Shown piece after piece: positions 7,700-60,717 of a stretch of 64,000 nt of DNA (its first letter is position 1; each line of letters begins with the position of its first letter). The notes below the pieces were generated by a model, which did no database searches, was not told the DNA's origin, and worked only from the letters and a program-made list of their open reading frames with translations. This DNA comes from Octopus vulgaris (lineage: Eukaryota), in assembly GCA_951406725.2 (NCBI GenBank), contig OX597822.1, positions 86,800,001-86,864,000 on the forward strand. The letters run 5' to 3'. The position numbers and the translations under genes are program-made.

Positions 7700-8381
7700 T
7701 GTAGATTAATTCCGACATCAATCTACATCAGCACCGACATCGTACGTCCACGTAAATATATTTGTTGCACCGGAAATTCATTCAAGAAACGTTTTTCCAA
7801 CCATCGATCCTCCTTCAGAGTCCCGGAAAGGAGATATGTAACATTGCTGGCCAGCCATGTTTGGCAACCAAAAGACGACGGAGTTCCACACACGACCTTA
7901 TGGAAAATCTCCGAAAACCCAGGCCCCTACATCAACAGGACGAAACGCTGCAAGCTAGGCATAGCCGAACGCACGAGAATCCTAAGAGACTCACTCGAGT
8001 CAGGGGCTATACTTAACTCCAGAACGGAGATTTTCGAGCCATGTTTGCATTTTAGGAGATTTCTGCTGGCCTTTTGGGAACCGCCGGAAGTTGATAGCTA
8101 ACGGGAGAGGGAGATAATATATTGTTTACCCTCCCAGCTGAACGATGGCAGTTCAACCGGAAGTCGATAGTCATTGGCAGAGGGAGATAATCCAGACTTT
8201 TCCTTTCCATATTTTAAAGAGTTCATAGGCCAACAGGTCTTGGGGTCTGACGATATGCCATAAAATTAAACTCTTTATGGACGGGAAACCCAAGGTAACC
8301 CCCCAAACCAGCTTTCACTAGAAAAAAATATAGATTCTTCTTCTCAGAGTGTGCTTCTCCAGATTTATGTTATTCTAAAAA

Positions 8382-8440: not shown

Positions 8441-8443
<3 letters not shown>

Positions 8444-10307: not shown

Positions 10308-11309
10308 TATATATATAAAAGCATTTGTACATACATATTTATAGACACATGCAAACATGCATACACGTTTTTCTAGAGACACACTTGCGTGTCTTCAATC
10401 AGGCAACATTTATTCTCGCTCGTTTACAGGCGAGAATTGAAAGCTTGTAATCATGGCCAAGTGAAAGACCGTAATCAAGTGAAATGGAGGAGGTTTTCAT
10501 TAAAAGCTGCGACTTCAGTTAAAGCTTCAACGTGTGTGAAGGGAAAAGCTAGTTTTTTGTATTTAGACAGAAGGGAAAAAAACAATGTAGATGATTGAAA
10601 CAAGATATAAAATAAATTGGAGGGGAAAATGGCTGACTGGGTTAATGAGTTCGACACACAGTGAGGGTGGTGGTGGTGGGGATGGCGGGTTTTAGTTTTT
10701 GTATTTGTTTTGGATGTATTTTTATGCATATTTTTTCTTTGAAATTTGAAAGCAAACAATTCTGTTTTTGTCATTAGGAGGGATGTGTCCCTAGAGACGC
10801 TGAAAAGTAATTAAGATGGGCTTAATATTTTAAATGTTTTGTACTTGTGTATATTAGAGTTCTTACTGTTGGCATTCTAGTAGTAGTAGCAACAGTAGTA
10901 GTAGTAGTAGTCTAGTTTCGTGGAACAGATGGAATAATCACGAGACTGTATTTCAGAGTTGCATTGAGCTGAGTGGATGGGAACAACTAAACGAACTGTG
11001 AATAGTTCGAATCTTATCAGTGGTACTAAGCTGTATCCATGGATAAGACGTTCAGTAAGTAGCTCAGTCGGTTAGGGTGTCAATAGGTAGCCTAGGCTCG
11101 TATACATCACTTCTGTAAACAAAGAGAACACAAGGGGCCATGCATGCATACATACATGCATACAAACACGCACATGCATATATACACGCGCATACATACA
11201 CACACATACATACACACACACACATACATACACTCATATACATACATACATACATACATACATACATACATACATACATACATACATACATACATACACA
11301 TCGTGGACC

Positions 11310-12035
11310 ATCAACCAGATTACTACTTCCCACTTTGAAGGGTTAGGGTTTGCAAACCCGGGACAGGAAATATCATCCAAATACCTGATGCACAAAAGGA
11401 ACAGAGATGCAGGAAAAGCAGTAAAATGTGACAACCGATGCAGACTTTGTGGTATTAACACCGAAGATATCCCCCACATCATAAGCAGTTGTCCAAAAAT
11501 GTCATCACGGTATTATCTACTGATGAGACATGATGTTGAAGCTAGAACACTGTATAACGAGATCCGTCGAAAGGATAACCCCCAACAACAAAGATATAAA
11601 AACTCACAGCATGGGGGAAGCCATATCCACTCATAATAAAAGAGTATTGGTGGAATGTCCCAGTGAAAACCTCAAAAAATGTAAACACAATACACCTGGT
11701 ATAATGATTTGGGATAGAGAAGAGAAACTGTGTACAGTTGTGGAAATCAGCTGTCCAGCAGATGTTAACATAAAGCTGAAGATCAGTGAAAAGGAGAATA
11801 ACTACGCTAAACTATTGAGAAATCCTCTGCTACACTATTCAGATTACAAGTTCAGGTTTATACCTGTAATTATTGGGGCCCTCGGATATGTAACACACTG
11901 CCTAAATACCATACTAATCTTGAGAAATTAGTCTTCTCAAAATAGAAAGGAGAAAGCTAATTCAAAGACTACAGACCCAATCCGTCATTGGAAATGTAAA
12001 AATCTGTAAAGCTTTTCAGAAGTTTATCATTTAAA
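11310..12035 (+). mobile_element. R4/Dong-type non-LTR retrotransposon 3' fragment (CCHC knuckle plus restriction-like endonuclease)
   Basis: CRLCG..TEDIPHIISSC, RHD, HNTPGIMIWD..K.CTVVEISCP.D, EK..NY, IPVIIGALG. Confidence 0.88.
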
Positions 12036-29991: not shown

Positions 29992-30054
<63 letters not shown>

Positions 30055-30058
<4 letters not shown>

Positions 30059-30293
30059 TCCTAGACCGGACGTTGTGAGTGTTTATTGAGCGAAAACACC
30101 TAAAAGCTCCACGAGGCTCCGGCAGGGTGTGGTGATCCCTGCTGTACTCTTTCACCACTCTTTCTCCCACTCTTTCTTCTGTTGGTCTGCTCGCTTAGCC
30201 AGCGGGGTGGCGTCATTCGAAGGCTAAAACAATGCGAAGCGCATTGTGACCAGCGATGTGTAGCAACATCTGATGGTCTGGTCGGTCACGTGA
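30055..30293 (+). mobile_element. 5'-truncated copy of the OR-type SINE at 17661-17970
   Basis: High similarity by eye; ends CTGGTCGGTCACGTGA then (TA)n. Confidence 0.88.
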
Positions 30294-30309
30294 TATATAT
30301 ATAATGTAA

Positions 30310-30510
30310 CTACACGTGGACTGTTGGCGATATTTTCCCTCCTTTCTTTTCTTTTGGACTTTCCTTTGTCGTCTTCTGTTTCCGAAGACGAGTTTAGCTC
30401 GAAACGTAAAACAACCATCTTTTCTTTCCTTCTCTGAGCGTCTCATTAATACTTTGCATGTACTACGTTCTCGCGTTGCTTTTTCTTGATTTTTTTTTCT
30501 CCGTTTTTTA
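30310..30510 (+). mobile_element. Second copy of the 683-857 repeat with degenerate minimal HHR (30378-30412)
   Basis: GTTT-CCGAAGA-C-GAGT-TTA-GCTC-GAAAC-GTA-AAAC. Confidence 0.68.
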
Positions 30511-30531
30511 AAATTATATATATATATATAT

Positions 30532-30677
30532 TTGTTTCTTTATTACCTTCAAGGGGCTAAACACAGAGGGGACAAACAAGGACAGACAAACGGATTAAGT
30601 CGATTACATCGACCCCAGTGCGTAACTGGTACTTAATTTATCGACCCCGAAAGGATGAAAGGCAAAGTCGACCTCGG

Positions 30678-30682
<5 letters not shown>
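30532..30682 (-). mobile_element. SINE family A 3' half (long-tail subtype)
   Basis: Reverse complement matches 62127-62277. Confidence 0.88.
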
Positions 30683-30723
<41 letters not shown>

Positions 30724-31649
30724 CATGTATATGTATACAAGTAGTGTCACATGACATGTAATGTTGGGAATATACATTTGCCAGCATGGGTAATATCAGG
30801 TAATATATTTATTGTACACTGGAACAATAATTATAGCTTTATCCTTTTCGAAATGCCAGTGTGTTTGTACAAAATAATGAAATGATTAATTTTGCAACTA
30901 TTTATTGAATCAAATTTAAAGAAAATGAAGTCTAACATATTTCTCAAGTTATTTTCATTTACCATAAAAATATCTCATCAAAAGCAATAATAATAATTAT
31001 CAACTGCAATAATGATAATGTAATACACTGATAATGTTACAGATTGGAAATTCCTTATTCGAAATTTCAAAATCCGAAAAGCCTCTGGAAAATTCCACGA
31101 AGTGCTGGGAAGCATTTGATAACATTTACCTGTAATCAAATTCCATGTTTTGCTTTTTTGCAAAAACGGTTTGTGTTTTATTGACTATATTCTCCTGTAT
31201 GAATCAACGTAGATTTAAAATTATTATACATTTAGTATTACGCAACGTTTCCTTTTTTTACTCATAGTGGTGAAAGTTTAGTACCAACGATAGCCATCAC
31301 ATGACAGTGAACACTCCAGCTTTGAAATTAAAAACGTTTATGTGTTTGTGGCAAAAGTAAATTGTGAATCGTGTTGAAGTATTTGATATTAAAGGGAGTG
31401 GTAGATGTAGGGGCGGAAAGGGGAGTAGTAATAGTAGAAAGAGAAGGTAAAGGAGAGGAATTGTTAGTTGAAGTTAGGCGAAGGTGTAGTTAGAGTAGTA
31501 GAGAGTGAGAGAAGGGGAGGAACAGTATTAAATGAGGTTGCATGTCGAATCAACCAATAACAAGACAGCTGATAGAGTTATAGGATATATATATATATAT
31601 ATATGGATATATATATATATATATATATATTTACAGTATACACAAACTC

Positions 31650-31701
<52 letters not shown>

Positions 31702-34700
31702 TTTGGAACAATGAATGTCGAAGCACATGAAGCTATAAATATTGTATTAATAATCCGTGTGGGCAAAAAAGAGATTTCAAATCGAATATCTACACCATTT
31801 GTTTATAGCTTTATCTGCTTCGAGTTTCATAGTTCCAGATAAAAAGAATTACTTCATGTTCTCTTGAAGTCGATAAATTCCTATGACGTCAAGAATATGT
31901 GTGTGTGGGGTGGGGGTGAAAAGATAAATCACAGACCGCGCTTAAAATCCTTGAAAGCAGTTCCCCCAGCTTGACCGAAGTTCAAAGACTGAAATCAATA
32001 AAAGAAATATAGGATATATCCCATAAAAATCGAAGCAGGAAAAAAAATTATCAACCCTGATGGGAATCGAACTCAGAATATTACAATTTGTAATAATGAA
32101 AACTTTTGCATACTAAGAGATGACAAGGGCGGTTGGTGACAAATGATATAAACGCCCGACGGCCATTAAATCCGCTGAAGATTTGTAACTTATTGACATA
32201 GAAAAGAAATTAATAACCGTTCTGCGTTTACTTTGATAAACACAGAATCGTCGTCGTATAGAAACATCATTTCCAGTTCCCAAGCTATCGCAGAGTAACG
32301 GCAGCATTCATATGTGTTTCCATCTCTTAATAGACTACAGCCGTTTAAAAAAGGAATAACTTTTGTATCTGCCCCTCGAGATCTGACAGTTTTGAAATCA
32401 TTTCTTTATAATTAGAACGTAATAATGTCTACTGATATTTCAACCCAGTTGTAGATAGTTGCGAGTGTTTTATTATTTTAGACATTTATACTTACAAGAT
32501 AAAACATATAAAGATTATTGAATAAACTACTTAAAATATGGCTTTTGAATTTTGAGTTAAGATTCCTGATAAGGTTTAAACATTTTCCATTTTCCCTTGT
32601 GGGAAAGAGAAAAAGTTTGAGCGGAAACGATACCGAAGCTACTGACACGACAGTTTCCTTTTTCTTGGCTTTTCTGAGAAGTAAACATATGAACCATTTC
32701 TGTTATTGTTTATAAATTTGCATAAAAAAACCCATTATGCACCACCATGTCAAATTATATTATCTTGGAAATGATAATTTTATCCTTTTATTTTATTCAC
32801 GTTCCTTATTTTTTGTTTTCTTCGCATCTTTAAATGATGCATTTCTTCATGATCTCATGCTCAATACTCCCTCTATTTATTCCTATGAGTGTACACAATT
32901 TTTCTTTTGTTTTTTTTTTTTAGCTAAGTATGTACACATGCATGCTAATAACAATCACTTAAATACCACATTGACCACCTAAGCAAATATATATTTTAAA
33001 ATGTGTTTTATTAAAAAACAATTAATGAATTTTCACAATTAATTCCTCCAATTAAAAAAAAAATCGATTTCATCTTGAAAACCTTGTGCGTACATTTTAT
33101 TCTTTTGTGCGCAAGTTGTAAAACATGTATGCATTTACAAACAAACAGCTTAGGAGGAACACTACTAGTGTCGGTCTATTCCGAAAGGTGATAAAAATCC
33201 AAAATAACTGGGATAAGTCAATTATGAAATTGTAAAATAATCTGACAGCGCGAGAATATTCCGTTAATTTTATGTTTAACTTTAAATTATTTCTCAGTTG
33301 CTGTTTAGAAAAGAAACAAAATTCGGTCAAGGAGGTAGCCTCGATGCGGTCACCCGATCCGTTTGAAATACCAACGAAATATTCCTCAAATCACAACCTA
33401 TCATTTTAAAAATGGAAAAATAATCCAAGGCATAAAATAAATGGAATGGCTATAGCTGGAATGTTTTTGATCATAAGCTTACCGACCTAGGGCTAAATAA
33501 CGACAACAGAACAAAATTTTTTGAGGGTACGACAGCAAAATTTAAACATATTTGTCTTTGTTTCAATTTCTGTAAAATTCCGTTTATCCGCTTTCGATAT
33601 CTTTTCGACATTTTTACTTCATTTTCGATACTCTATTCTGTCTTTTTAAGATTGAGCTTAACCTCAATCGTTGAGGCGCGAAATTATATAACGAAGCTTG
33701 CAACTATAAATCCTGCCTCAGAATATAATAAAATACAAGAGACAGATATGCTTGAATGTGGCACAAAAAGTTGGCATTTATTTACTTATTTCTTGTAACG
33801 AGCATTAAGATGAATATATCAATGAAGTAAATTAACTCCAACAACAGCAACAACAACAGCAACAACAACTAGTTGACATTTTCTCAACTTCTTTTTAAAA
33901 TTTGACATTATCAAATAGACCACCCACCTTATAATTTCAACTCTTTTATTCTAACATTTATCTGGCATGTTTCATTTCTCGAAAATTTTACATTTTTTTT
34001 TATCGCAAGCGTTAACGAAACTGGACCGGAAGTAAGTCAAAAGCCGGATTGTCGGACATAAACGCTAATCATTAACAAAAATAGTTTTAAAGATAAGTTT
34101 TCCTTCATAAATAGAAGGTAATAAATAGCTTAAAGACATTCCTAACATTTTCCGTTATCTCATTCACTTTTGGTTAGCCGAGTTTTGCAAACAATGGTGG
34201 CTACTTTTTAAAATCATCGCATTCTTCTGTGAATACTTTATTTTTATACTGATGCAGAAAAGAAAAATAACATAAAGGTTATATAAATATATGTAGATAT
34301 GCAGACAGATGGTACGAGAAATTACGCTCGCGCGCACGTATACACGCACGCACGCGCGCACACACACACACACATAAAAGGATAGATGAGCTCATAGATA
34401 AAGATTATATAAGCATCTTGAAAAAGATAAATATATAGATTGTCGGAGTGATACATACATTCACCCATCCATCCAGCCCTCCAAACATACACACATGCAT
34501 ACAGAAATAGATACATACATTCATATAAAAATATACACATGCATGCATTTAAGCATTACAATACATACACACACATACATAAAATACATGCACACACATA
34601 CATACAATATACATACACATACATACATACATACATACATACATACAAAAATGACTCGTAAAATATAAACCTCAATAGGAAAGTGGTTGTTAACAGATGT

Positions 34701-35201
34701 AGTTGGTCTTAAGTGACTAATTCTGGCAAAAAAAGCAGGACTAGTCAAACTCGAATTGTGTATCCCCTACCCATACAGAGACACTCATATTCACAAACAC
34801 TCACACATACACACAAAAATGCACACACATACACACACCAATACAATTCATTAAAATTAAAAACAATTGGGAAATCATCAGCAATACACCAGATCTCATC
34901 GCTGTTTCGGTTATTTAAATAAATCTTTAGCTGGCTGGACGCTTCTACATTAGAGTGTTGCGATGTGCTATACAATACGTCCTTCTGTTCTGCTAGCCTA
35001 CCTCTACCTTAACCACGAACCTACTCTCTTATCCAAGAAAAAAATCACCTTGTTCCCTCTACTTCACGTCCCATCAAAATCCCCGCTCAAAATGCAGACC
35101 CCTCAAAATCTCTGCTCACAGCCACCACTGTTCTCCATCCAACTCCCTTACATTCTTCTATCAACTTTACATACTTTACCGCCTTCTTGTCTCCCACTTC
35201 C

Positions 35202-35285
<84 letters not shown>

Positions 35286-35352
35286 GTCTGTCTGTCTGTC
35301 TGTCCGTCCGTCTGTCTGTCTGTCTGTCTGCCTGTCTGCCTGCCTGCCTGCC

Positions 35353-35391
<39 letters not shown>

Positions 35392-35904
35392 ATGTCTGTC
35401 TGCCTCTCTGTCTCTATCTGATCTTAACTGATTGGAAGTGTTATCATGTACATTGTTTTGTCTTGGTATAAAAGATGGACTACTGCAAATATTCTTCCCA
35501 ATACCACAGATTTGCTTGAATTTAACCAGTTGAACATGTCCCTTATTGGATGACGATATGTGCATCTCTGATCACGAGCAAAAGTAGTGGGAGAGCATCA
35601 TAGCCATGTGTTGAGAGGAATTCTTTGGAGTTTGAATAATTCACCTCTGGAAACATTGGTGTTTCTTTCAACATCCTTAAGCAACTCTAATTCAAGGACC
35701 AGAATAAAATTCTAACTGGGCCCCATCTGCAATGTCATGTGTTGTTTATCTTGATATGTGATCACCATGTCGCGCACATATGGTTGTGATGCATATGCCT
35801 GGTGTACCTTTATCAGATGGGTAGTCATGATGGGTACACTGGGCTTTGTATATTTTATCCCAGTCTCACTTTGATGGTATATTAAATAAAATAATAATTT
35901 CTTC

Positions 35905-36243
35905 TATAAGACAAGAAGTTAGAAAACAATAGACCAGATATTACGATCACAGATAAGGAAAAGCGAAGTTGTTTACTTATCGACTCATCATACTCATTTG
36001 ATTCCAGGATCGTAAAGAAAGAGGAAGAAAGACAAATACAATCCTTTAAAATTTGAAATAGGAAGAATTTGGAGCATGTGAACAGTAAAAGTGGTGCCTA
36101 TAATAATTGGTGGATTGGGAACAGTAAGCCAAGATATAGACAAATGGCTGAAGGAGATTGAAATAGAATGTCTGGTAGAGCTCCTACAGAAAGTTTGTCA
36201 CTTAGCAACAGCAAGGATTATCAGAAAAGTCCTTGATATCTAA
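35905..36243 (+). mobile_element. R4/Dong-type RLE endonuclease 3' fragment
   Basis: NRPDITITDKEKRSCLLID, VKVVPIIIGGLGTV, LLQKVCHLATARIIRKVL*. Confidence 0.82.
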
Positions 36244-37216
36244 GAAAATTGGTTGTGACCCAGTATCAAGGACATTGATTCTGAATGTAAAACATTCATG
36301 CATACTCGCTCAGAAAAAAAAATCAGAAAAACTGTTTACTTATAGACACTGCAGTCCCTTCTGACCAAAATATTGTCCAAAAAGAAGTGGAGAATTTGTC
36401 AGCAAATATCCAATGAAATAAACTACCACCAGCAATCTGGATACCCAACGCATTACACACACAGCACACAATACAAACACTAATGCAACAAAAGACTGCA
36501 CCACACCTCAAACATAAAAGAAAGAAAAGAAACTGACGCAATACAATACCGGAAAGTTTTGCATACTCTCAACAACACACACACACACACACACCATTCA
36601 ACACGGTAGCAGGTGACGACGTAGAAATTTACCTGAAACTAACAACAACAAAGACGACGACGACGACGACAATAATAATACAGAAAAAAATGCACAAGTT
36701 AAATAGGCCGTTAGATAAATTGGAATAATAGAAATGGAGGCAAGTGACAAGCAGATAATTAAAAAATATATAATTGTTGGCTATGAAACTAGTAAACAAA
36801 CAAGAGACCCCAACCACCCATGTAGGGAAGAGCGACAAGCGTTAAAGATGGCAGCACAATAGAATATATAATGTCTTATGACGTCATAGGGAAGAATATT
36901 TGCCATTTTGAAACGTTTCTTCTGTGCCGTAGATGTGTCAAAGATGACGTGTTTGAGTTTCAGGTAATTTATAAATTATTGTGAAGTTGGATTAACTATC
37001 TCAGTTGGCAACGTGGGAGTTCTCAGATATTTTATAATAGCCCTAAAAACGAAAGCATTCTGTGCAGATGATACTGTCTTGTAGTGGAGGTGGCGAGAAA
37101 GGACGGGAGGGGGGGAGAAGGAGGAAGAAGGAAGAATAATGAGTTCAACTATTTCAATACTGGAAGAAATAGAATAAGTGCATAAATCTTTGGGGTTTGA
37201 GGGAGGACGTGTGTGT

Positions 37217-37349
<133 letters not shown>

Positions 37350-37467
37350 TAGATTATATGAGGGAATGCGTGGGGAAAAGAAATAAAAAGAAAGAGGGAG
37401 TGAAGGAGTATATATGTGTGTGTGTAAATAACTCTCTCTCTCTCTCTCCACACACACACACACACAC

Positions 37468-37530
<63 letters not shown>

Positions 37531-38347
37531 AATACACACACACATGCATCAATTACTCGGTCAAAAAACTCCTTTTAGCCATATAAGAACGCCGCACAAA
37601 AGTAGTTTTATTCACTTTACGTTTATTTATTCGAGACAAGGTCAAATTAATATGGTACCAAAAAGTTTCGTCGCACTTCTTGGACCAACTATTATTACTG
37701 AATTGTTGTGTAATTGAATGAATGTTTTTTTCTATACAAATGCTATATTCCTCATCCGCAAAGAAAAAAAACAAGAGAAGACACAGGTATTTCTAAGAAT
37801 GTGGGAAGAGATTATAAAAGCTTAAATATATAAAAATAATAAAATAAATATATACAAATTATAAAAATAATTTTTAGAATATACAGTACAGTACTGTTTT
37901 TACTTCGCAGATTTTTACCTATCGCGGGGGCTTTTGGAACGTAATACCCGCGATAAACGATAACCGAGGGATTACTGTTAACTTGCAGGAGATTTGATCG
38001 AAGCTGAGCAATAAAGTACAGAGTGAGAGAAGAAAATAGAAAATCCTATGAAGAAATAAGATATGAGACCCCCTCGTTGAGTAATTATCGCTTGCGAGGT
38101 TCTGCTATGAAACATATGTAGCCTGGATTTTACCCGCTCCATTCCTTCAATTTAGATTTTTCTTTGCTAACCGTGAACAATAGAATAACCTTTTTTCAGT
38201 TTATTGAACTTTGATATGGGAAGAACTTACAACTGTCTACGCCAACAAAACTATTCTTCCTGAAAGTTGTTTTTTATTCTTTCTACGGACTGCTCGAAAC
38301 TTACTAACTTCCTTCACCTGGATCTTTGGAGCTTACATTTACATATC

Positions 38348-38384
<37 letters not shown>

Positions 38385-38413
38385 CAAAATAAAAACATGA
38401 TGCCAAGGATTCA

Positions 38414-38491
38414 GCGGTACATATGTTTCGGACCTTTATTAGACGGATTTATAACAATGCATAATGTGTGTCTATGGCCTTCTTCAGCCGC
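38414..38491 (-). ncRNA. Minimal type-I hammerhead, mirror copy on the minus strand
   Basis: Exact reverse complement of 38634-38711. Confidence 0.85.
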
Positions 38492-38633
38492 GTACAATTA
38501 CTACTTCAAGGACATGTATTACATTATAAGTTTTACGTTGGGGATGCAAATCTTCACAGTCGCGACTGTGAAGATTTGCATCCCCAACGTAAAACTTATA
38601 ATGTAATACATGTCCTTGAAGTAGTAATTGTAC

Positions 38634-38711
38634 GCGGCTGAAGAAGGCCATAGACACACATTATGCATTGTTATAAATCCGTCTAATAAAGGTCCGAAAC
38701 ATATGTACCGC
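38634..38711 (+). ncRNA. Minimal type-I hammerhead with intact core
   Basis: Stem I GCGG/CCGC, CTGAAGA (38638-44), stem II GGCC/GGTC extended by TAGAC/GTCTA, GAAA (38696-99), palindromic ACATATGT stem III, GUA (38705-07). Confidence 0.85.
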
Positions 38712-38813
38712 TGAATCCTTGCCATCATGTTTTTATTTTGATTAATATACTCTACCACCTACACCACTAAATGGTATATACAGGTGCTTGCAATTATCAA
38801 GTATTCACCCTGA

Positions 38814-38960
<147 letters not shown>

Positions 38961-39264
38961 GCGGCCGTGGGAAAAAAATCAAATAGTCATAAACCATTTT
39001 TAAGTTCAACATCACAATCAAGGAACGGCCATAATAGGCCATTCACCCACTAGAAACAACAGCCAAAAGCCTCAACCGCTTTTTTTTGCCACCCTATATT
39101 GATTAATTGTGAATTTTCTGGTTAATTCCGTATTGAATCGGCGGCTTATATTTATTTGCTGCCGATAAATTTGGCGCGAGTGCGACGATTTGAAAATTTT
39201 AGGTCAGATATTGACGAGGTAGCAACGAGAATGCCTCGTGAGAAATATCTGTTCCGGCTTGGCT

Positions 39265-39371
39265 ATTTCTTACTGATGAATCTAAGGGCCTATGGTAGAT
39301 TGGCTTGATTTAATTTAATCAGGTTGGTTTTCCATTAAACAGTAGATGGGACGGTGCATCGTCTAAGAAAT
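39265..39371 (+). ncRNA. Hammerhead-topology motif with GAAA>GGGA core variant (unit 1)
   Basis: Stem I ATTTCTTA/TAAGAAAT, CTGATGA, stem II ATCTA/TAGAT enclosing a long hairpin, GGGA, near-palindromic stem III ACGGTGCATCGT, GUC. Confidence 0.78.
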
Positions 39372-39758
39372 TACAGGGTAAATGTTTTTTGATTTTCTCC
39401 TGGTTTACGGAATTGACGTTATTTTGCGGTTGAGGCTTTTGGCTGTTGTTTCTAGTGGGTGAATGGCCTATTATGGCCGTTCCTTGATTGTGATGTTGAA
39501 CTTAAAAATGGTTTATGACTATTTGATTTTTTCCCACTAGGCCGCTGGTGGCAGAAGAATTCTACAAAATTTTTTTTTTTGCCACCCTATATTGATTAAT
39601 TGTGAATTTTCTGGTTAATTCCGTAATGGAATCGGCGGCTTATATTTATTTGCTGCCGATAAATTTGGCGCGAGTGCGACGATTTGAAAATTTTAGGTCA
39701 GATATTGACGAGGTAGCAACGAGAATGCCTCGTGAGAAATATCTGTTCCGGCTTGGCT

Positions 39759-39865
39759 ATTTCTTACTGATGAATCTAAGGGCCTATGGTAGATTGGCTT
39801 GATTTAATTTAATCAGGTTGGTTTTCCATTAAACAGTAGATGGGACGGTGCATCGTCTAAGAAAT
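39759..39865 (+). ncRNA. Hammerhead-topology motif with GGGA core (unit 2)
   Basis: Identical to unit 1, offset 494. Confidence 0.78.
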
Positions 39866-40250
39866 TACAGGGTAAATGTTTTTTGATTTTCTCCTGGTTT
39901 ACGGAATTGACGTTATTTTGCGGTTGAGGCTTTTGGCTGTTGTTTCTAGTGGGTGAATGGCCTATTATGGCCGTTCCTTGATTGTGATGTTGAACTTAAA
40001 AATGGTTTATGACTATTTGATTTTTTCCCACTAGGCCGCTGGTGGCAGAAGAATTCGACAAAATTTTTTTTTGCCACCCTATATTGATTAATTGTGAATT
40101 TTCTGGTTAATTCCGTAATGGAATCGGCGGCTTATATTTATTTGCTGCCGATAAATTTGGCGCGAGTGCGACGATTTGAAAATTTTAGGTCAGATATTGA
40201 CGAGGTAGCAACGAGAATGCCTCGTGAGAAATATCTGTTCCGGCTTGGCT

Positions 40251-40357
40251 ATTTCTTACTGATGAATCTAAGGGCCTATGGTAGATTGGCTTGATTTAAT
40301 TTAATCAGGTTGGTTTTCCATTAAACAGTAGATGGGACGGTGCATCGTCTAAGAAAT
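40251..40357 (+). ncRNA. Hammerhead-topology motif with GGGA core (unit 3)
   Basis: Identical to unit 2, offset 492. Confidence 0.78.
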
Positions 40358-40475
40358 TACAGGGTAAATGTTTTTTGATTTTCTCCTGGTTTACGGAATT
40401 GACGTTATTTTGCGGTTGAGGCTTTTGGCTGTTGTTTCTAGTGGGTGAATGGCCTATTATGGCCGTTCCTTGATT

Positions 40476-40555
<80 letters not shown>

Positions 40556-40565
40556 TGTATGTATG

Positions 40566-40629
<64 letters not shown>

Positions 40630-40784
40630 GGCCGTATAGACCAATTATGTTGTATAATTAACTGTAAAAATGAAACTAAAATGATAAACTATGAAGATGT
40701 ACCAGTCTCCGTATTCTTTGTAATTGTTCTGGATTTATGACTGGTTCTGCTCGTTTCAGCGAAATTTCGAAATGTAAAAGATCC

Positions 40785-41083
40785 TTTTCTACTCTAGGCA
40801 CAAGGCCTGAAGTTTTCGGGGGGGGGGGGGGCAGTCGATTAGACCGGCCCCAGTACGCAACTGCTACTTAATTTGTTGACCTCGGTGGAATTTGAACTCA
40901 GAACGTAAAGGCTAACGTTTCTTATTTCTTTATTGCCCACAAGGGGTTAAACATAGAGGGGCAAACAAGGACAGATAAAGGGATTAAGTAGATTTCATTG
41001 ACTCCAGTGCGTAACTGGTACTTAATTTATCGACTCCGAAATTTAAACTCAGAACGTAAAAACAGGCGAAATACCGCCTTCGA
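40785..41083 (-). mobile_element. Two adjacent deleted SINE family A copies
   Basis: GGAATTTGAACTCAGAACGTAA and CCAGTGCGTAACTGGTACTTAATTTATCGAC match family A in reverse. Confidence 0.8.
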
Positions 41084-41833
41084 AATGTAAAATATTGCAA
41101 ATGATTTTGTGTTCGCCTTTGCGTATTTAAAAAAAAAAATTGTACGTTTAAAGATTGTCTGTAAAAATAAACAAGATTACTAAGTAATAAAAAAGCAATA
41201 AAATGGAAAAAATTCCAAAGATTATGAAATTCTACTGTTAGACATGTAATGCTCTTATGCATTGGCAGAAGCATGGCAATTGTTTTGTGTTACTTAAGGG
41301 TGGGTTACTTGAAGACAGTGATTTAGCACAAGTGTTGAGGGTAGAATTGCAGACTTATTACTGAGGGGCTTTTGAGCCGAGTGAAGTAAAAGTGAAGAAT
41401 CGAGAGTAAAGTAAATCCCAAAGTGAAGGAATGGAAATAAGGAATAGCTGTATAGAGGGAACAGGAGGAATCGAAGTGTGTTTATTATGTTTGATCTTTC
41501 ACATAAACCTAGTTTTTTTTGTTTTGTTTTATTCTTCTGTCTTTCTCGCTGCATTTTTGTTTCGATGGCTCGGCCTGACACACTTAATTCCAAACAACGT
41601 CCAACCCCCCAACCACGCATCTCTTTACCACTTTTTGCACTCCACAACTCCCAACATCACAACAGAAACCATCACCATCACCACAACCACAACCACCACC
41701 AGAAATACACTCATCACGACCATCATCACAACTGCCATCACCACTGTCGTCGTTGTTATCATCACCTCTTTCCACCACCACCACCACCACCATCATCATC
41801 ACCACCACCACCTCCACCACCATTTCCACCATC

Positions 41834-41866
<33 letters not shown>

Positions 41867-42240
41867 TTTTCATCATCATCTTCATCATCATCCATCATCA
41901 TCATTTTTCATCATCATCATCATCAGTTTGTCACCATCACATGCTGTGTAGACATTCAAACATTATTCACTACCTTTTCAAATCTTGTAGCATTTCACAT
42001 GGAATATTTCCCCTTCTAAAGTCGTATTAGAACTATCTTTTGTGGCTGAAAATTTTGGTCGCAAAAGTTCGACTTCTATACCAGGAAATAAGGCATAATA
42101 TTCTGGTCAACGCACCACTTACATTGCATTTCACATCCCATTTCATGACTGGAAACGTGTACCAGATGTGAGGTGTCAGCTGTTATAATTAAAAAAATAA
42201 CACTCTCTCTCTGGTATTGAGTGCTGTCTTACTCTTCCAC

Positions 42241-42308
<68 letters not shown>

Positions 42309-42833
42309 TGTTCATATTGCTGCTCAATCAGGGGTTGACCTGGAGGAGGTAAACGAATACCATTAAGCTTATGTAAACTGGGGAACCGCGGTAGTATTTT
42401 CAGGGTCCATGAAAAAGATTTAGCTTTCGGTGTATTTATTGCAAGAAACAGCGAAGTTTCTTTCACAAACATTTTACATAGTTCAACTTACACGAGTTAT
42501 TGTGCGAAGAACAAAATAGGAATTTAGAAAAGAAGGTCTATAAAACTAGTTTTTAAACTTTGAATTGCTATGGGGGTCCACCAGAACAGAATAGGAATAA
42601 AGGGGTCCATAGATAAAAAATGGTTGAGAACCACTGAGTAGAAGATCTTATTTTTTTGGCGTGCTAAATACTAAATAGATTGATGTAGCAAAGTGAAAAT
42701 GTGAAGGTGATGAAGATAGCGGAGACAAAATACGAACCCTCGACTCATCTGCTGGTGATGCCAGTACTCTAACCATTCGCCCAGCTGCGACTCTCAGACA
42801 ATACATGCACGCGCACGCACACACACATGCATG

Positions 42834-42864
<31 letters not shown>

Positions 42865-42979
42865 TCTGATTCACATCTGCCATTATTATCTTCTAGAACT
42901 AATCTTCCACGCACACACACACACGCTCGCTCGTATCATGTATGTATGCGTGTGTGTATATATATGTATGCGTATATAA

Positions 42980-43033
<54 letters not shown>

Positions 43034-43346
43034 ATGAATATATATTTATATATGCTCATACTTATTCGAACATGTAATTTAGACATATATATATATATAT
43101 ATGGGTGGATTTGTATATATGTACATATATTACATGCAAACATGTATACATACATTTATATATATATATAAATATATATCTAAGTATTTATACATATGCA
43201 GGCATCAACCACCACCAGAAATACACTCATCACGACCATCATCACAACTGCCATCACCACTGTCGTCGTTGTTATCATCACCTCTTTCCACCACCACCAC
43301 CACCACCATCATCATCACCACCACCACCTCCACCACCACCACCATC

Positions 43347-43379
<33 letters not shown>

Positions 43380-43391
43380 TTCATCATCATC

Positions 43392-43422
<31 letters not shown>

Positions 43423-43438
43423 CCATCACCATCATCAC

Positions 43439-43485
<47 letters not shown>

Positions 43486-43793
43486 ACAACAATAGGTCTA
43501 TCCAAATCGTCAATGTCAGCAGCCCATACGAAACATTGGTCGGGTAAAAGTTGTTTCGAAACGGCATCTTCTGCCACCCGCCTCCAACTCCATTCCTTGC
43601 CAATTTCATGCACTCCATAATTCGAGACACACTGGTTGAAAAATTAATTCTTCTCTGAGAATGGCAAGATTATCACTGACTGCCTGTCTGTCAGTCAGTT
43701 TGTATTATGTATGTGAGTATTAAGTATGAGCATGCGTGTGTGTGTGTGTGTATGTGTGTGTGTGTGTGTGCGCGCGCGCGTGTGTGTGTGTGC

Positions 43794-43863
<70 letters not shown>

Positions 43864-44181
43864 GCGTGTGATATGTAGAATACCGACTACATCTGCGGCG
43901 GTCGGCCAGTTTCCTGATGTTACCTTCATTCTTTTTTTTTTTCCCACTGATTTCCCACCGTGTCTTCTTGCTATCTGGACGCAGCAACCAGCATCATCTC
44001 TTCTCTCTCGCCATATGTTTTACATTAAATTCCATTTCCTGATGCCGACCACAACGACATCATCATCATCATCATCGCTCATCTTTTCCTTTTCTCTTCC
44101 TACCACTTCTCTTTACAGCCACTCGCTGTTGTTATCCCCTGCTTTATCTCCCACGTGTATATACGTGCATGTACACAGCTT

Positions 44182-44227
<46 letters not shown>

Positions 44228-44295
44228 GCACACACACACACGCTCGCTCGTATATGTATGTATGCGTGTGTGTATATATATGTATGCGTATATAA

Positions 44296-44341
<46 letters not shown>

Positions 44342-44709
44342 ATGAATATATATTTATATATGCTCATACTTATTCGAACATGTAATTTAGACATATATAT
44401 ATATATGGGTGGATTTGTATATATGTACATATATTACATGCAAACGTGTATACATACATTTATATATATATATAAATATATATCTAAGTATTTATACATA
44501 TGCAGGCATCATACACACGTACATTACATACATACATACACACATATATACATACAGATAAATAATGAATATCAATATATTAAGAAACTTTTTGCTGTGC
44601 TTAAATTATCATATCCCTATTTCACTTACCTGACTCCCATTGTTGCATCTCTTTCTCATTCCTATTTCCTTCCCTACACCTCGATTCTCTTTCTGTTTAA
44701 TGTCTCCGA

Positions 44710-44772
<63 letters not shown>

Positions 44773-45334
44773 TCAACAGTCACACATATACCCGTACATC
44801 TACACATAATCAAAGTCCTCCCACTTTTCAATGCCAGGAATAATATGTTGCCCCTTCCCCGTGTTAATTACTGGTGAAGCTGAACATATTATTCTAGATA
44901 GAAAAAGTAATGAGATGGGTTCAGTCCGGTGTAATCTGTTGGCTTAGGGACCGTGTCGGCCCCTAGAGTAATGAGATTCAGATTTCAGGGGCAAAAAAGA
45001 CAAAAGTGTAATTAATTCTTCGCTGCAAGATGTCGACTGAGGAGAATTCAACGCTTCAGGCTCTGGTCTTTAAAAATACGAAAAAAAAAAAATGTGTGTG
45101 TGTAAGAAAGGGAGAGAGGAAGAGTGAGAGGAGAAAGGGTTAAGAAAAGTGAATGTTGGTTTATGGTTCCGCATATCTCATCCAAAATGTGACATGAGGG
45201 TGATTTGGCTACATTTTCTAGAAGGTTTAATGACCACAGTGATGCTTCTTGTTATTGCTATTCAGTTCAAGACTCTCATGCACATATACACACATAAGCA
45301 TGCATACATACATACAGATACAGACAGACAGATA

Positions 45335-45398
<64 letters not shown>

Positions 45399-45949
45399 TG
45401 ATGGGGTTCGGGATCTATTCAATTTGACGGCCAGATTGAAAAAAATTGTTTTTAACTAAACACTTTGAAACTTCAGATACTGGTAGAATGTGTCACATAG
45501 GACAGGGTTTACTCGTAATGTTTTTGACAAAATTTTGTATTTTAGAAGTTATTTCGTGTTAAAGTTTTCGTATTTGAGTAATTTTAACCAATCAATGACC
45601 TGTATTCAGCTGAAGAATTTTACTGCTGCTGTTTGTGAACAACTTCCGGGTCCGTTACATACACACACACACATTAATAATAGGCAGAAGTTACAGAGTG
45701 ACAATGGCCAAATTCGTGTTTGATATGTGTCAATGATATACATATATAGCGATAATATATACACATACATATATGTGTAAAAAAAATCTCATTACGCAGT
45801 TTTTGATGATAGGTTTGCTGTATCAGGGTTGATTTGAGGCTAAATAATAACAAAATTATGTTCCTTAGTGAAAATCGTGCGGGTGAAAAGATCAATGGGG
45901 ATGGGGGTTGAAATTTCTGAGGCTTCCACCTCACCTCACCCCGTTTTTC

Positions 45950-46585
45950 GGAACCCAAAAGGGTTTTGTAACATATATTCAAGAACAACAGATCTTCAAG
46001 TATCTACAGCTTGAAAGGTGGAAAACGTTGACAGACAACGATTGTAGGCTGTGCAAAACTAAGACTAAAGGCATCAGCCACATTGTTTCCAACTGCGAGA
46101 GAATGTCTTCCAAATATTATCTTCTCATGAAGCCTGATGCGATGACCAGAACAGTCAGGAACAGGATAACAATAGAAAAAAACCCCTACAGACGAAGTTG
46201 ACTTTATTGAGACTAATGGTTCAAAAGAATATTTGTTGAACTTCGAAATAAAAGACCCGTCAAATTAAAACACAGCTGGCCAGATATTATGGTGTGTGAC
46301 CACAAGGAAAAGATATGTTCTATTGTGGAAATCTGCTGTCCTCTGGACACCAATGTAGTTAGAAAAATAGAAGAGAAAGAGGACATCTATGGATCTTGAT
46401 ACACTTTTAATGTCATACCTATTATTATTGGAGCAACAGGGTACATACCGAGTCGTCTGGGGCACAGTATGGCTGAACTTATTATCATGGGGTGAGAACA
46501 CAACCCCTTGATTCATACGCTGCAAATGATCACGATATCTGGGGCCATTAAAATCTGCAAGACCTTAAGATTTAAAGGATGATAA
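45950..46585 (+). mobile_element. Decayed R4/Dong-type RLE fragment; a further partial piece lies at ~46650-46850
   Basis: IQEQQI, CRLCK..TKGISHIVSNC, WPDIMVCDHKEKICSIVEICCPLD, IPIIIGATG. Confidence 0.78.
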
Positions 46586-47948
46586 ACAAAGCAAGATGCC
46601 TTCCGCCAGAATCTCGCTACCAAGCAGTTGCCCGGTCAAAATTTATTCTAAAGGAGAAAGCGAACACATAGTGCAAAGATTGAAGACTGGATAATGTTTG
46701 GAACAAACAAGATAAAGTATAGACTGTCATACAGGTCAGCTGCTCTGTTGATGTGAATATCGTTTCGAAAATCAAAAGCAAAGAGGATAACAACGGATAG
46801 CTGCTTCGAAACATCGAGCTCCTATATCTACATTATAAATTCACATTTAGGCAAATAATAAGTTGTGCATTTAATTTTGCGAGTAAAAACCCAAGCAACA
46901 ATCGGGATAAGCTCGGGTTTTCAGAACAAAGGAATCAACCAACTTAACCCTTATATTAGAAATACAATTTGTAAGCAGAAAAATAAAAATGTGAATTTGT
47001 TTTTGCCTACATTCCAACTATGAAGCTTTGTACCTTTGTTAACAGCCAGCTCCTACCTTACAGGAAAACTTCAAATAATTAAAAATAAAAGAGAAGACGC
47101 ATACACATACATATTTACATATATATATTTACAAACACCCGCGCACACACACACACACACGCAAGGTTAAAAGCCACACTCCATGCGGACTTTTAAGTTA
47201 GCTCCTGTGGAGGGCTATTTGGGCTTTCAGCCCAAAACTGAAGAGAGCAATAGTAAAACATTTATCTCAGATTTATGTCACAGAGTATCACAATTGGAGA
47301 ATTTTGCATCACTGTGACATTTGGCGATCATTGTAAAGCAGCAGGATGAACAATATTCTTTGTTGACGGATAGAATGTTGCGTTTATTATTGTAGGTAAT
47401 AGAGGTAACTGTCACAAAGTTTGGGTATTAAATCCAAAAAGCTGACACAGAATGTTGCGTTTATTATTATAGCTAAGGGAGGGAATTCTTGTAAACCATT
47501 TAAAACCTCTCACGGTTGCTTTACCTGCTAGAAATAGCAACCCAAATGCTCTTACTTCCGATCCCAGTGCTGGATGTTCAAGAACCAAATGACGGTCAGA
47601 TTTTCAATCTTGGGATCATCCTGATTCCAATAAGGTATAATATTAGCGTGTCTGACAGGTTTTGATCGCGGGTCTTTCGTGCATTGATATGAACGTCAAC
47701 TAAGTTGAAGTGTCGATTGGCTGTGTGACATTGCAACAGTGTTCCCCGTGCTGTTGTGCTTGTTTCACTTCAGATCAGCCTTGATCAAGCAGATCTATTA
47801 TAATAAGCATCCCTCATGCGATCTTCGTGCCTTTTTTCAAGACATAAGACATGCAGAATTACAGCAGCCAACGCTTCCTTCCTTTCTCAGAACAATAGTG
47901 TATGATTTGAGGAATATTTAGCTTCTATTTTTAAAACTTCAAGCAACA

Positions 47949-48167
47949 TACGATGGGGTGCTGAAAAGCTCCTGGCTTTGGGTAAAAGAAAATACAGGAT
48001 GGTCAGTTAACTGATTTTATTCTCCATATTCCCCTCTCAGATTCACACACTTATTGCAGTGGTCCTTCAGTTTTTCTAAGCCCTGTAAAAGAACTTGGAA
48101 GGGTGGACCACTGACTAGGTCTTACGCGATACCCTTAAAACCAGCAACTTTGCAGCATCTCCTCGTA
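47949..48167 (+). mobile_element. Mariner-derived MITE
   Basis: TACGATGGGGTGCTGAAAAG / CTTTGCAGCATCTCCTCGTA terminal inverted repeats with TA ends. Confidence 0.78.
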
Positions 48168-48849
48168 TATATGTTCCCTTATTGCTGCTATTTAACTTCA
48201 ATTTTTCCCTGATCGAATAAATTTAAGATGATTGATGCTATAACCTTGACAATCTCATCTTTTTGAAAAGCAGGACGTTATTATGCAATATATCCTTTTA
48301 AAAGATGGTAACGTGTAATTTAAGAAAACTTTGGCTGATATTTCTAGTCGGTCTAGTAACTACATAGTGGTTCTCTTGTGTTGCTTAGCTTCTGGTCATC
48401 CGTCCTTGCGTTGAGTCGTCTTCATATTCTTACTTACTATTTGTAATAATGCCAGTATTAACTGGGATAACGTTGTTTAATCCCAAGTCAGTACTGACCA
48501 AGCAGATTTATAATTTAAAGGAATTCCAGCTATGACCATCACCAATTTTTCATAGATTATGAAAGGTAGACTACATCAAACTGCCCCCTTTATTTAAGAT
48601 ACTAAAGTGTGATTTGGTGGAGTTTCGGTCTCTGTTTCTGGTTCGAGTTATTGTTGTTGCTAGTTGAAATGGTATGGAAACTTTTCAATCATTTGAAGAC
48701 ATCAAAATTGAAGTGTAGTACCAAAGTGTCGTCTTGCATGCACGGCTTTGTCAGTGAAGATAGTATCTCCTGGGAAACTCAAGCCCCTTGATAACTTATA
48801 CTCTAGCATCAATATTGATTATATATTTCCTTTGCCCACTTGATCTGAT

Positions 48850-49800
48850 AAAGGCGTAATAAAAGGTGTTGTTATCACACCTAACTTACAGAACGATTTC
48901 ATCCTTGCTTCTTGAATAAAAAATTACTTAACAAGTTCTGACCGGAATCTTTCCATTCGAAAATAGCATAGATTTTGCAATATGTGTGATTGTGCGTGTT
49001 ATTACAAACATTGTGAAACTGTTTGCACGAATTATTTGGTTTCCCCATGAAGGTGTATGATGACGCGGAACTATGAAACATCGTAATTTTCATTTGTTTA
49101 CTTTGAATGGAGGTTTTTATAGAGACGAGGGACTGCTAAATGCGCATAATATGAATGACCTTCAGTTAGACTAAGAAAAGGTCTAAAGCTCTTTACTGTT
49201 TTAGTTTTAAGAATCACAGTTGATAGCATTCTTAATATTGTTAATTATTTAAATATCGTTTCATACTTAGGCATGAATAAACCCTGCAGTTAGAGAAAAG
49301 CTAACAAGGAATTATTTCATATAAACAAGAATTCCAGTTACCACCCCATTATTTTTGTAAATCACATTTTAAATATTATCTCTTAAATATCAATGGATGA
49401 GGGAGACTCATCTTTTAGCGTTTCGCATTATAACGAGGCTTTACTTAATAACAATTTTTCTGATAAAACAAAATATACTATGCTCTATTCTCCTAAGTGT
49501 AAGAATATATCAAAAATATCCTGCAATGTGATTCAACTTTCAATTTTAATGCAAGAACAAATATCGCCAGGGAATTTCTAAATTTAGTTTCATTTTAGTT
49601 TTCATCAAACCATAAACATATCATTTTCAGAATCGAAGTTAAAATTTGGCCATTTCAACTAAAAAAAGACTCTCCGACAATAATAATAAAACATCTTTTC
49701 CTAACTGTAATTGTATTGTTCCGAAAAACTCTACACAGAACAATAATTACCTTTCGAAATCATTGCTTTATTGCACAAACTCTCAGATAATAAATAGCAT
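48850..49800 (+). mobile_element. Very old Penelope RT relic
   Basis: PMKVYDDAEL, GGFYRDEGL, INKNSSYHP, HYNEALLNNNF, RTNIAREFLNLV. Confidence 0.65.
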
Positions 49801-49904
49801 TGTATTTATACTGGATTAGGTGAGAAAAAATCCTTCTTTACCTTTTCCGCTTAATTTCTCTATATTCTTGTCCCTAAACAGCATAATCCCATTTACCACT
49901 TTCA

Positions 49905-50165
49905 TTTTTAATATTGTGTGCCAAGGTTATGTCAAACATTAAAAAATCAATTGGTTTCAGTTTTTGGTACAAGGTCATCTGTTTTTAGGGAACGAGTTTG
50001 TCAATTGCATCGACTTCAATACTTGATTGGTACTTTACTTTATCGACACCGAAAGCTTGAAAAGCAAAGTTTACCATGGCAGAGTTTGAACTCAGAATGT
50101 AAAGGACCGGAAGAAATATTACAAACACTTCTTCCGATGCTCTAACGATTCGGCCAGCTCGCAAC
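49905..50165 (-). mobile_element. Degenerate SINE family A
   Basis: TTTGAACTCAGAA...CTAACGATTCGGCCAGCTCG in reverse orientation; similar relics at ~54985-55290. Confidence 0.65.
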
Positions 50166-59472: not shown

Positions 59473-60717
59473 GGGGGCGTAAGATATTTGAGGAGAGACT
59501 TACGTTTATAAAAACATATATATAATATATAACAAATAATAACTTAATCAAAAAATGCTATGAGGATAAAAATAAACCTTTTTTACTATAATGTTATTCT
59601 ATAAAGCCACCTTCAACTTCAACAACTATTTCTATATGAGATCTAAATCATCTACATGCTTGAATCAAGTGGTCCTGGTTCATTTTGGACATTACTCTGA
59701 CTATGGCAACTTTCAAAGAATCTTTGGTGTTATGGGTGTATTCATTGACCTCTCACTCAACAACGCTCCACATGTAATAGTCCAATGGATTGAGATCTGG
59801 GGAATTTAGGAGGTCAAATATTAGGGGTTATGTGACCATGAAAATTTTCAGCTATCCATTCCTGTGTTACTAGAGCCATGAGTGAAAGTGCAGAGTCTTA
59901 CTGAAACACATATGGCCTCCCATTGCATATATTGTCTATCCAGAGCTTCATAATTATTTCCAGGACCTCAATATAGGCGGCAGTTAACTCTAAGGCCTCG
60001 TGGAAAGTAAGGGGACATCATATGTCCTTCATTGATGACAACCCTTAAAACCATGACAGTTTCAGGAAATTTTGTATGTCTAACACTTGGGACTTCAGAA
60101 GGGTCTGCACATAGCCATCTGTCATTTCTTGATAACTTTTTGATCTTGGTCAAAGTCTTTCTCGTCTGAGAAAAAACGAAATCAAATCTTCTGCTGGATT
60201 TTTCAGTTTGTTTAAGAGCCTTTTAGATCTGATGTAGTGATTTTCTTTTGCTTTTTCGGACAAATTGATCTTTCCTCATCATATAAAACTTATATTTGAT
60301 GTCTTCGTGGACAACATTTCTGACTGTTCCTTCTGATACATGATCTTTTGCAATTGACTTCATGCACTTTCTGGGATTGTAATCAACGGTCTGTTGAAGT
60401 TGCTGGATAAATTCAGGTGTTTTGATGATTTCAGAGCATTTAGAATGCTTTTCATGCTTTGATACTGGTGATGCATTTCCATCTTCAGTCTCTAACTCCT
60501 TACACACTTTGTAGATGAAAGATCTGGCAACTTTTAAAAATCGAGATATTTCTAAATTGCTATACCCAACCTTTATAACCACAATAACAGCATGCCTCTT
60601 TACTTCTTGTGTAAGCTGAGGGTCTTCCGTTATTATTTTCTGAAAACAAAGATTACAAAGAGTAAGCAAAAAATGCAACAATGACCCAAAAAATGTATGT
60701 CCTCAAATACTTTACAC

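Follow-up and report, generated by a model that had tools for sequence, protein, structure and literature searches.

The non-LTR retrozymes of coral, mussel and axolotl/newt satellite 2 are known together with their circles, and the step from circle to tandem cDNA by a Penelope reverse transcriptase (RT) is stated as a proposal (PMC7229834, main text and Discussion). We ask whether a tandem array in the genome of Octopus vulgaris records that step: was its template a single RNA circle, read several times? The array lies in a window of 64,000 nucleotides (contig OX597822.1, positions 86,800,001 to 86,864,000 of the forward strand), the whole stretch that was analysed; coordinates below are those of the window unless a locus is named. 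A first-pass annotation had taken the array for a rolling-circle retro-copy, by a Penelope RT, of a hammerhead-bearing circular RNA.

Structure of the array and its target site

The tandem repeat at 39080-40480 has a period of 492-494, 2.8 copies and 99% matches, with a GC content of 0.39 and no plus-strand ORF of 120 aa. Positions within the monomer, denoted q, are counted from the predicted cleavage site, 39858 being q1. The insertion and its immediate flanks (38818-40630) are composed as follows.

38818..38961, no strand: left copy of the target-site duplication, (AT)29(GTAT)6(AT)9(GT)20 ATAG
38960..39079, minus strand: inverted second arm (head), q63-183, 120 nt, directly upstream of the array
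39080..40480, plus strand: main arm, q208-492, two full monomers and q1-131 (2.85 units)
39364..39857, plus strand: full monomer, 494 nt, with all 11 A-to-G changes described below
39858..40349, plus strand: full monomer, 492 nt, with the same 11 changes and one unit-private T-to-G (40057)
40481..40630, no strand: right copy of the target-site duplication, (AT)n(GTAT)10(AT)7(GT)22 ATAG, then undisturbed flank

Both parts described in the first-pass annotation are borne out: the array of ~2.85 units, with monomers of 494 and 492 nt, and the inverted head, then given as 119 nt, which is 97.5% identical to unit q63-183. The main arm ends outwards at q131 and abuts (AT)n there; the outer end of the head lies at q183, compared to the usual q238, with a 2-nt deletion close by. 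Unmentioned in that annotation is the target-site duplication of ~145-150 nt, a compound microsatellite whose block order is equal in both copies and whose repeat counts have drifted. Further downstream, a 177-nt block occurs twice (41690-41866 and 43206-43382, 96% identity, 1.5 kb apart), a small local duplication.

Hammerhead motif and folding of the unit

Each unit contains one CTGATGA, one GTC, an 8-bp stem I, a 5-bp stem II and a self-complementary stem III; stem II closes a 58-nt insert containing a long hairpin. Three motifs are complete.

39265..39371, plus strand: type I hammerhead motif 1, predicted cleavage after 39363
39265-72 with 39364-71, plus strand: stem I of motif 1; core at 39273-79
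39280-84 with 39343-47, plus strand: stem II of motif 1, followed by GGGA at 39348-51
39759..39865, plus strand: type I hammerhead motif 2, GGGA core, predicted cleavage after 39857
40251..40357, plus strand: type I hammerhead motif 3, GGGA core, predicted cleavage after 40349

The stems, CTGATGA and GTC agree with the exact type I hammerhead per unit that had been called at first sight, but the core does not: the canonical GAAA after stem II reads GGGA in three units out of three (A13G and A14G; 39349-50, 39843-44, 40335-36). A13 and A14 are essential in hammerheads, and the ribozyme of this copy is therefore probably dead. In 10.64898/2026.07.22.740005 a canonical core in every unit defines an active element, and this copy has none. 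Rfam (E<=1, window 30000-50000) returned no hammerhead or other relevant family among its 66 matches, all of them microsatellite and palindrome artefacts.

The extensive pairing noticed in the first pass holds up, the unit folding far better than shuffled sequence. As a linear molecule it has a z of -4.47, with none of 100 shuffles as good; as a circle it reaches -146.8, while 60 shuffled versions average -118.6 (sd 6.4), the best of them at -137.8, and the reverse strand, likewise folded as a circle, comes to -93.5. The self-complementary 12 nt of stem III are predicted to be far more stable as a dimer than as a hairpin (-17.5 vs -0.2 kcal/mol). Dimeric cleavage is described for Penelope hammerheads in the text available of PMC6765202, and the palindromic stem III of the octopus family fits it.

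A young, dispersed family

Dispersed homologs, which a retrozyme should have, were sought in the 2.8-Gb assembly and found: a DNA search with the unit gave 222 matches among the best 40 of 1,327 candidates, the full-length ones beyond the window being 94-98% identical to the unit. Exact core patterns yielded at least 1,765 hammerhead cores genome-wide (948 + 817), a count that leaves out a further group with a GUA triplet. The sample assembled from these numbers 119 loci: 40 were chosen by similarity, 32 lie at the beginning of the 948-core list, 20 came from a targeted pattern search, 3 from the 817-core pattern, and 24 were selected for A-to-G matches. The sampled loci split into several subfamilies.

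An alignment of 60 distinct monomers (66 loci) has 65 columns with recurrent variation. The hammerhead core is unchanging in all 60 except at positions 7 and 17, the latter being the cleavage base (C or A); in hammerhead numbering these are the positions that tolerate change. Seventeen recurrent changes fall in predicted pairs, of which 14 retain the pair by a change on one side and 1 by changes on both, while 2 break it; as the structure was taken from the same alignment, this count leans in the structure's favour. Stem I is invariant across the family, stem II shows a double change from A-U to G-C as well as three broken variants, and in one large subfamily the central GC of stem III has become AU with the palindrome retained. 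Core conservation and this covariation suggest that the family self-cleaves.

Some long arrays show further order: L059 has a 4-unit higher-order repeat inside one array, and at G000:C8:30047278-30050704 a T-to-C variant occurs in 6 non-contiguous units. Such patterns reflect either DNA-level amplification or assembly collapse. A satellite spread only at the DNA level is ruled out for the family by short two-armed insertions with fixed ends on many chromosomes. Dispersed homologs and structure-preserving variation (pairing retained in 15 of the 17 changes) both support the retrozyme family claimed in the first pass. The family is young, dispersed and of the non-LTR kind, and we are highly confident that it is a retrozyme with Penelope-type two-armed insertions. 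Judged against the open-access literature, it is a new family of a known class and no new class.

Insertion anatomy across the family

Ninety loci hold a single insertion, L099 and L108 being left out as double ones. In 61 of these 90, one outer end lies at ~q131 (q126-136) and the other at ~q238 (q228-247), and 72 of them consist of two divergent arms; the same pair of ends recurs in 15 of 22 further loci. Nearly all ends of the q131 or q238 type (140/151) abut (AT)n, and both sites fall in weakly paired parts of the circle fold. The inner breakpoints, in contrast to these fixed ends, are scattered over the whole unit, with a modest excess in q1-50 (22/144), and the junctions across the cleavage site are free of length change in 391 of 391 cases. 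Outer ends join microsatellite or unrelated flanks (40 + 10 loci) with no RT plus GIY-YIG ORF attached, which rules out an autonomous Penelope-like element or its ordinary pLTR.

The first-pass annotation had argued from permuted ends, and had regarded fixed ends as speaking against its reading. This array does run from q208 to q131, but the ends of the family are fixed. They read nonetheless as the signature of two Penelope start sites: for Anolis Poseidon in vitro, both strands of an AT-rich target are cut and extended, and two internal RNA start sites define a 'tail' (PMC11167929, in the text available). As a lead, changes near q238 may divert the second start site: the q238 end is absent in 2 of 5 two-armed loci with such a change vs 6 of 76 without, L181 being a counter-example.

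Two side observations concern insertion sites. L099 and L108 each contain two separate family insertions within ~1 kb, of different subfamilies in L099, and at L047:1606-2343 an insertion with ends q247 and q126 lies outside a microsatellite, in an AT-rich target duplicated over ~10 nt.

Penelope-like elements as candidate partners

A protein search with the Penelope fragment of the window returned many intact frames of 800-1,090 aa (10,047 candidates). Most of the 18 frames retrieved have RT motifs, a CxC...C linker and a GIY-YIG-like C-terminus, as read by eye; most lie in (AT)n, and their type I hammerhead combines a long insert in stem II with a palindromic stem III. In the main family, intact elements with an RT plus GIY-YIG frame of ~980 aa end in (AT)n either 35-37 or 149-155 nt past their own hammerhead, with one end of each kind in L150, L153 and L160 and exceptions at 14, 60 and 179 nt. 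Together, L146-L163 represent several Neptune-like families that are young, bear hammerheads in their pLTRs and end in (AT)n at either of two positions, which makes their proteins candidate enzymes; the Neptune label follows the linker Zn-finger motif as given in the available text of 10.1101/2021.04.23.441226.

No sequence similarity was found between the unit and 38 Penelope loci out of the 10,047 candidates (best match 22 nt, E 0.03), so the partner is suggested by anatomy. Pfam gave no RT or GIY-YIG match for three Penelope fragments of the window and four intact ORFs (one weak, unrelated match), and PDB gave 0 matches; their Penelope identity accordingly derives from the motifs read by eye.

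The window itself holds broken Penelope-like fragments beside (TA)n at 1181-2700, 7577-8101 and 8441-8760. An inverted head had been noted earlier for the first and the last of these; that of the first, ~117 nt long, probably exists, fitting the orientation of matches in L128, L137 and L139. In the last, one part can be delimited.

8511-8756: RT fragment of the Penelope-like piece at 8441

A near-perfect palindrome with 187-nt arms at 38376-38749, beside (TA)n and with a type I hammerhead on each strand, matches the pLTR of L158's intact Penelope-like element at 86% identity; it is a minimal two-armed Penelope insertion. Other elements in the window are a LINE-type RT fragment at 4250-5359 (RVT_1, E 6e-14), what we take to be a retroelement-like fragment at 11091-11931 and presumably a Tc1/mariner transposase fragment at 60223-60702.

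Eleven A-to-G changes shared by all units

Relative to the majority of the first 40 loci, this copy has 11 fixed substitutions, all of them A-to-G on the ribozyme strand: q28, 69, 71, 85, 162, 191, 237, 371, 455, 478 and 479. They correspond to 39391, 39432, 39434, 39448, 39525, 39554, 39602, 39736, 39820, 39843 and 39844 in the first full monomer and to 39885, 39926, 39928, 39942, 40019, 40048, 40094, 40228, 40312, 40335 and 40336 in the second. Each is found in every unit or segment that covers its site. The inverted head has all four of the changes that it spans (q69, 71, 85, 162); on the plus strand they read T-to-C, and that at q162 sits beside an extra T in the alignment. The first-pass annotation did not mention these changes.

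The closest sampled locus differs from this copy by exactly these 11. By comparison, the other 39 loci contain 33 fixed changes, subfamily alleles included, of which 2 are A-to-G (Fisher p 1e-8, which is indicative only, the locus having been picked out after the fact). Over the other loci of a 92-locus sample, 84 of which had a position covered twice, the background amounts to 28 private fixed changes, at most two per locus: 3 A-to-G, 5 T-to-C and 5 G-to-A among them, and thus no family-wide excess of A-to-G among private changes. In that count 8 of the 11 changes are strictly private, q162 being left out by misalignment. A191G is also fixed in L080, and A69G is frequent in other subfamilies, none of whose remaining markers is found in this copy; being a subfamily allele, it was rejected as a marker of other edited loci.

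The edited (GGGA) core occurs genome-wide in three units, all in this array, and a genome-wide pattern search for any A-to-G at the four core adenosines gave four units, three of them in this array. A second hyper-edited locus was not found in the 119 loci or, among the matches listed, in five pattern searches, one of which listed 100 of 211 matches; the single-unit matches L177-L182 were considered and rejected, as they are not hyper-edited. In L176 (G000:C8:65383000-65388300), A224G and A233G are present in both arms, and its second end is unusual (q205). Elsewhere 17 private changes are fixed across both arms, behind which source loci outside the sample could stand.

An assembly error is an unlikely cause of the shared changes: all are of the same type, they switch strand in the head, and differences private to single units stand beside them.

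A single template, probably read repeatedly

Since RT errors made at each pass would differ between units, shared changes point to the template. The stretch q63-131, covered three times by the main arm, is covered once more by the head and has the same changes there, and unit-private differences persist in this array (three) as in others. The most economical explanation is a single RNA molecule that was read over and over, starting from two primers. This copy probably preserves one edited RNA circle, of which about three rounds were copied. The rolling-circle conclusion of the first-pass annotation thus gains support, through the 11 changes common to units and head and not through the permuted ends from which it had been argued.

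We propose the following course of events. Transcripts of the arrays would be cleaved into monomers by the type I hammerhead, which probably acts as a dimer via the palindromic stem III, as conservation and covariation suggest; the monomers may then be ligated to circles, by analogy with the retrozymes of coral, mussel and axolotl. One molecule would have been deaminated at 11 of its 128 adenosines, two of them in the catalytic core, putatively by ADAR. As in a dimer one core cuts the partner's site, a dead core is compatible with editing before or after cleavage. A protein, probably of a Penelope element, would nick (AT)n and start at q131 and ~q238, giving the two divergent arms with variable inner breakpoints that the loci display. 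Each arm may pass the cleavage junction several times on the same template, as the shared changes suggest. Here the second arm would have begun at q183, ~145 nt from the first nick, which would explain the long target duplication. The enzyme would probably be of Neptune type, primed on both nicked strands of the AT-rich target. A circle allows such repeated reading by an RT without RNase H, an activity that Penelope RTs are not known to have.

A linear template has to be weighed against the circle. The ends q208 and q131 permit template lengths of 416 plus whole units, and with zero whole units the precursor has no repeat to expand. With a linear template of 1.85 units, 9 of the 11 sites are covered twice, and most of those 9 are unedited in all other loci; an independently edited linear multimer would not give this pattern. 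The linear multimer might instead derive from an earlier, already edited source array, left uncleaved because its core was dead, the source having started as an insertion of barely more than one monomer and expanded by unequal crossover, with no circle involved. DNA-level expansion is indeed seen in long arrays such as L059 and that on C8 with its T-to-C in 6 non-contiguous units; unequal crossover is a route discussed for tandems in the available text of 10.64898/2026.07.22.740005, and uncleaved RNA is a good substrate for the Penelope enzyme in vitro, where Poseidon used it and no hammerhead was needed (PMC11167929, in the text available). Yet no other unit with the edited core is present in the assembly, and two extra events are required together with a source that was lost or is polymorphic; we consider this origin unlikely.

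Alternatively, the RT could have used one edited, linear self-cleaved monomer and jumped in each round from its 5' end back to the 3' end of the same molecule. R2-type RTs are known to jump between templates, and such jumps would likewise yield identical changes in all units. What makes it highly improbable is the precision of the 391 junctions, none with gained or lost bases, and the scatter of the inner breakpoints, which do not fall at the junction beyond their modest excess in q1-50.

We give still less credence to a differently edited linear multimer that was inserted and then homogenised in place by gene conversion. Homogenisation does occur, in part, in some long arrays (variants in 7/10 or 5/6 units), but here conversion must cover both terminal part-units and the inverted head, leave no residue and spare the three unit-private differences. 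One circle, re-read from two start sites, remains our preferred template.

Origin of the changes

Cephalopods edit RNA heavily, and both the type of change (A-to-G in 11 of 11) and its strand fit ADAR. The sequence context speaks more softly: the 5' neighbour is U or A at 10 of 11 edited sites vs 88 of 128 background adenosines (69%), a weak difference, and a 3' G follows at 2 of 11. Edited adenosines are not enriched in the paired positions of the monomer circle (mean pairing 0.44 vs 0.55, p = 0.71), so that the circle's own fold does not explain the editing. Weak context and lack of helix enrichment make it more likely that editing took place in a long duplex: the read-through hairpin of a two-armed locus, or a sense-antisense pair.

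The same two observations favour a cause other than ADAR acting on a single re-read template, namely biased misincorporation in RNA-to-RNA copying or a lesion of DNA adenine. The strict A-to-G on the RNA-sense strand, flipping in the inverted arm, and the recurrent site A455, a paired UAG, count against it, and we hold such a cause to be very improbable.

A455 lies paired in the long hairpin, in UAG context, and is G on at least 6 subfamily backgrounds. At four adenosines of this hairpin a pattern search found G in 61 units of 20 loci (q455 in 14 loci, q450 in 4), compared with 13 units in 6 loci for a T-to-C control at four G.U sites. On a 103-locus tree with q450 and q455 masked, q455 needs 8 changes, the most of any site, in a sample enriched for loci carrying G there. 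A455G merely converts A-U to G.U, and recombination could spread it.

A wider interpretation, towards which we lean slightly, is that the changes form an editing barcode of a single molecule: the ribozyme circle would be the true template of retrotransposition, one Penelope RT complex would start at two fixed sites of this circle, one for each target strand, and produce both arms by repeated rounds, and ADAR would kill circles (core A13G, A14G) while feeding heritable variants such as A455G into a viroid-like population of subfamilies. For this family we infer ADAR, circularity, expression and the partner enzyme from genomic sequence.

Contigs from sequencing runs (three runs guessed to be RNA, one of unstated kind) cover 29 of 29 bins of the canonical unit and bridge unit end to start; tandem DNA would give the same joint, and they are therefore uninformative as to transcription, circularity and editing. 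In runs labelled with three other organisms, 34-52% of the words are present.

Comparison with known systems

Like the metazoan non-LTR retrozymes described in the main text of PMC7229834, the octopus family consists of non-coding tandem units with one type I hammerhead each and low GC (39% here), in many dispersed copies that co-occur with Penelope-like elements. It differs by its unit of 492 nt, compared to ~300, by the long hairpin in stem II, by its two divergent arms with two fixed ends in (AT)n and by a copy with shared A-to-G changes; inverted arms, target sites, microsatellites and ADAR go unmentioned in that main text. Circles are demonstrated for those retrozymes, whereas the octopus family is known from genomic sequence. 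In Xenopus, retrozymes are linked to pLTRs (10.64898/2026.07.22.740005, in the text available).

Tandem and inverted insertions, tails and (TA)n targets of Penelope elements are described in the available part of 10.1101/2021.04.23.441226. With the Neptune-type elements of this genome the octopus unit has in common the (AT)n target, the inverted upstream arm, the two alternative outer ends ('tail') and a type I hammerhead in which stem II has a long insert and stem III is palindromic; unlike them, it has no ORF and no detectable similarity to the pLTRs compared. The spacing of the two ends is ~107 nt in the unit vs ~117 in the Neptune-like elements here and 30-40 in described ones. Anolis Poseidon shares the two internal RT start sites, the use of both target strands and the AT-rich target, but belongs to a different clade and was studied in vitro with linear RNA; neither concatemers nor circles appear in the available text (PMC11167929).

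The chemistry has precedents in retroviruses with A-to-G hypermutation and in edited hepatitis delta RNA (available text of PMC12925331): there too, A-to-G changes of RNA are fixed by copying, and a ribozyme circle serves as ADAR substrate. The octopus element, by contrast, is a non-viral, non-coding retroelement in which tandem-repeated changes report how the template was read. Among the open-access papers listed in our searches we found no report of editing-marked retrozyme or Penelope copies, or of editing common to tandem units. Circular RNA is also retro-inserted into genomes in circRNA-derived pseudogenes; these come from back-spliced exons without a ribozyme, while the octopus unit bears one.

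The edited copy, with changes common to its units and both arms, is genomic evidence that one RNA was re-read, and thus for a retro-copying step hitherto only proposed. Re-reading of one RNA accounts for the formation of tandem and inverted insertions of the Penelope type. The family also provides a test system: the template is small, both start sites are mapped, the target is (AT)n, and intact candidate enzymes are encoded by the same genome. The search for A-to-G clusters shared by tandem units could be extended to any retrozyme or Penelope family.
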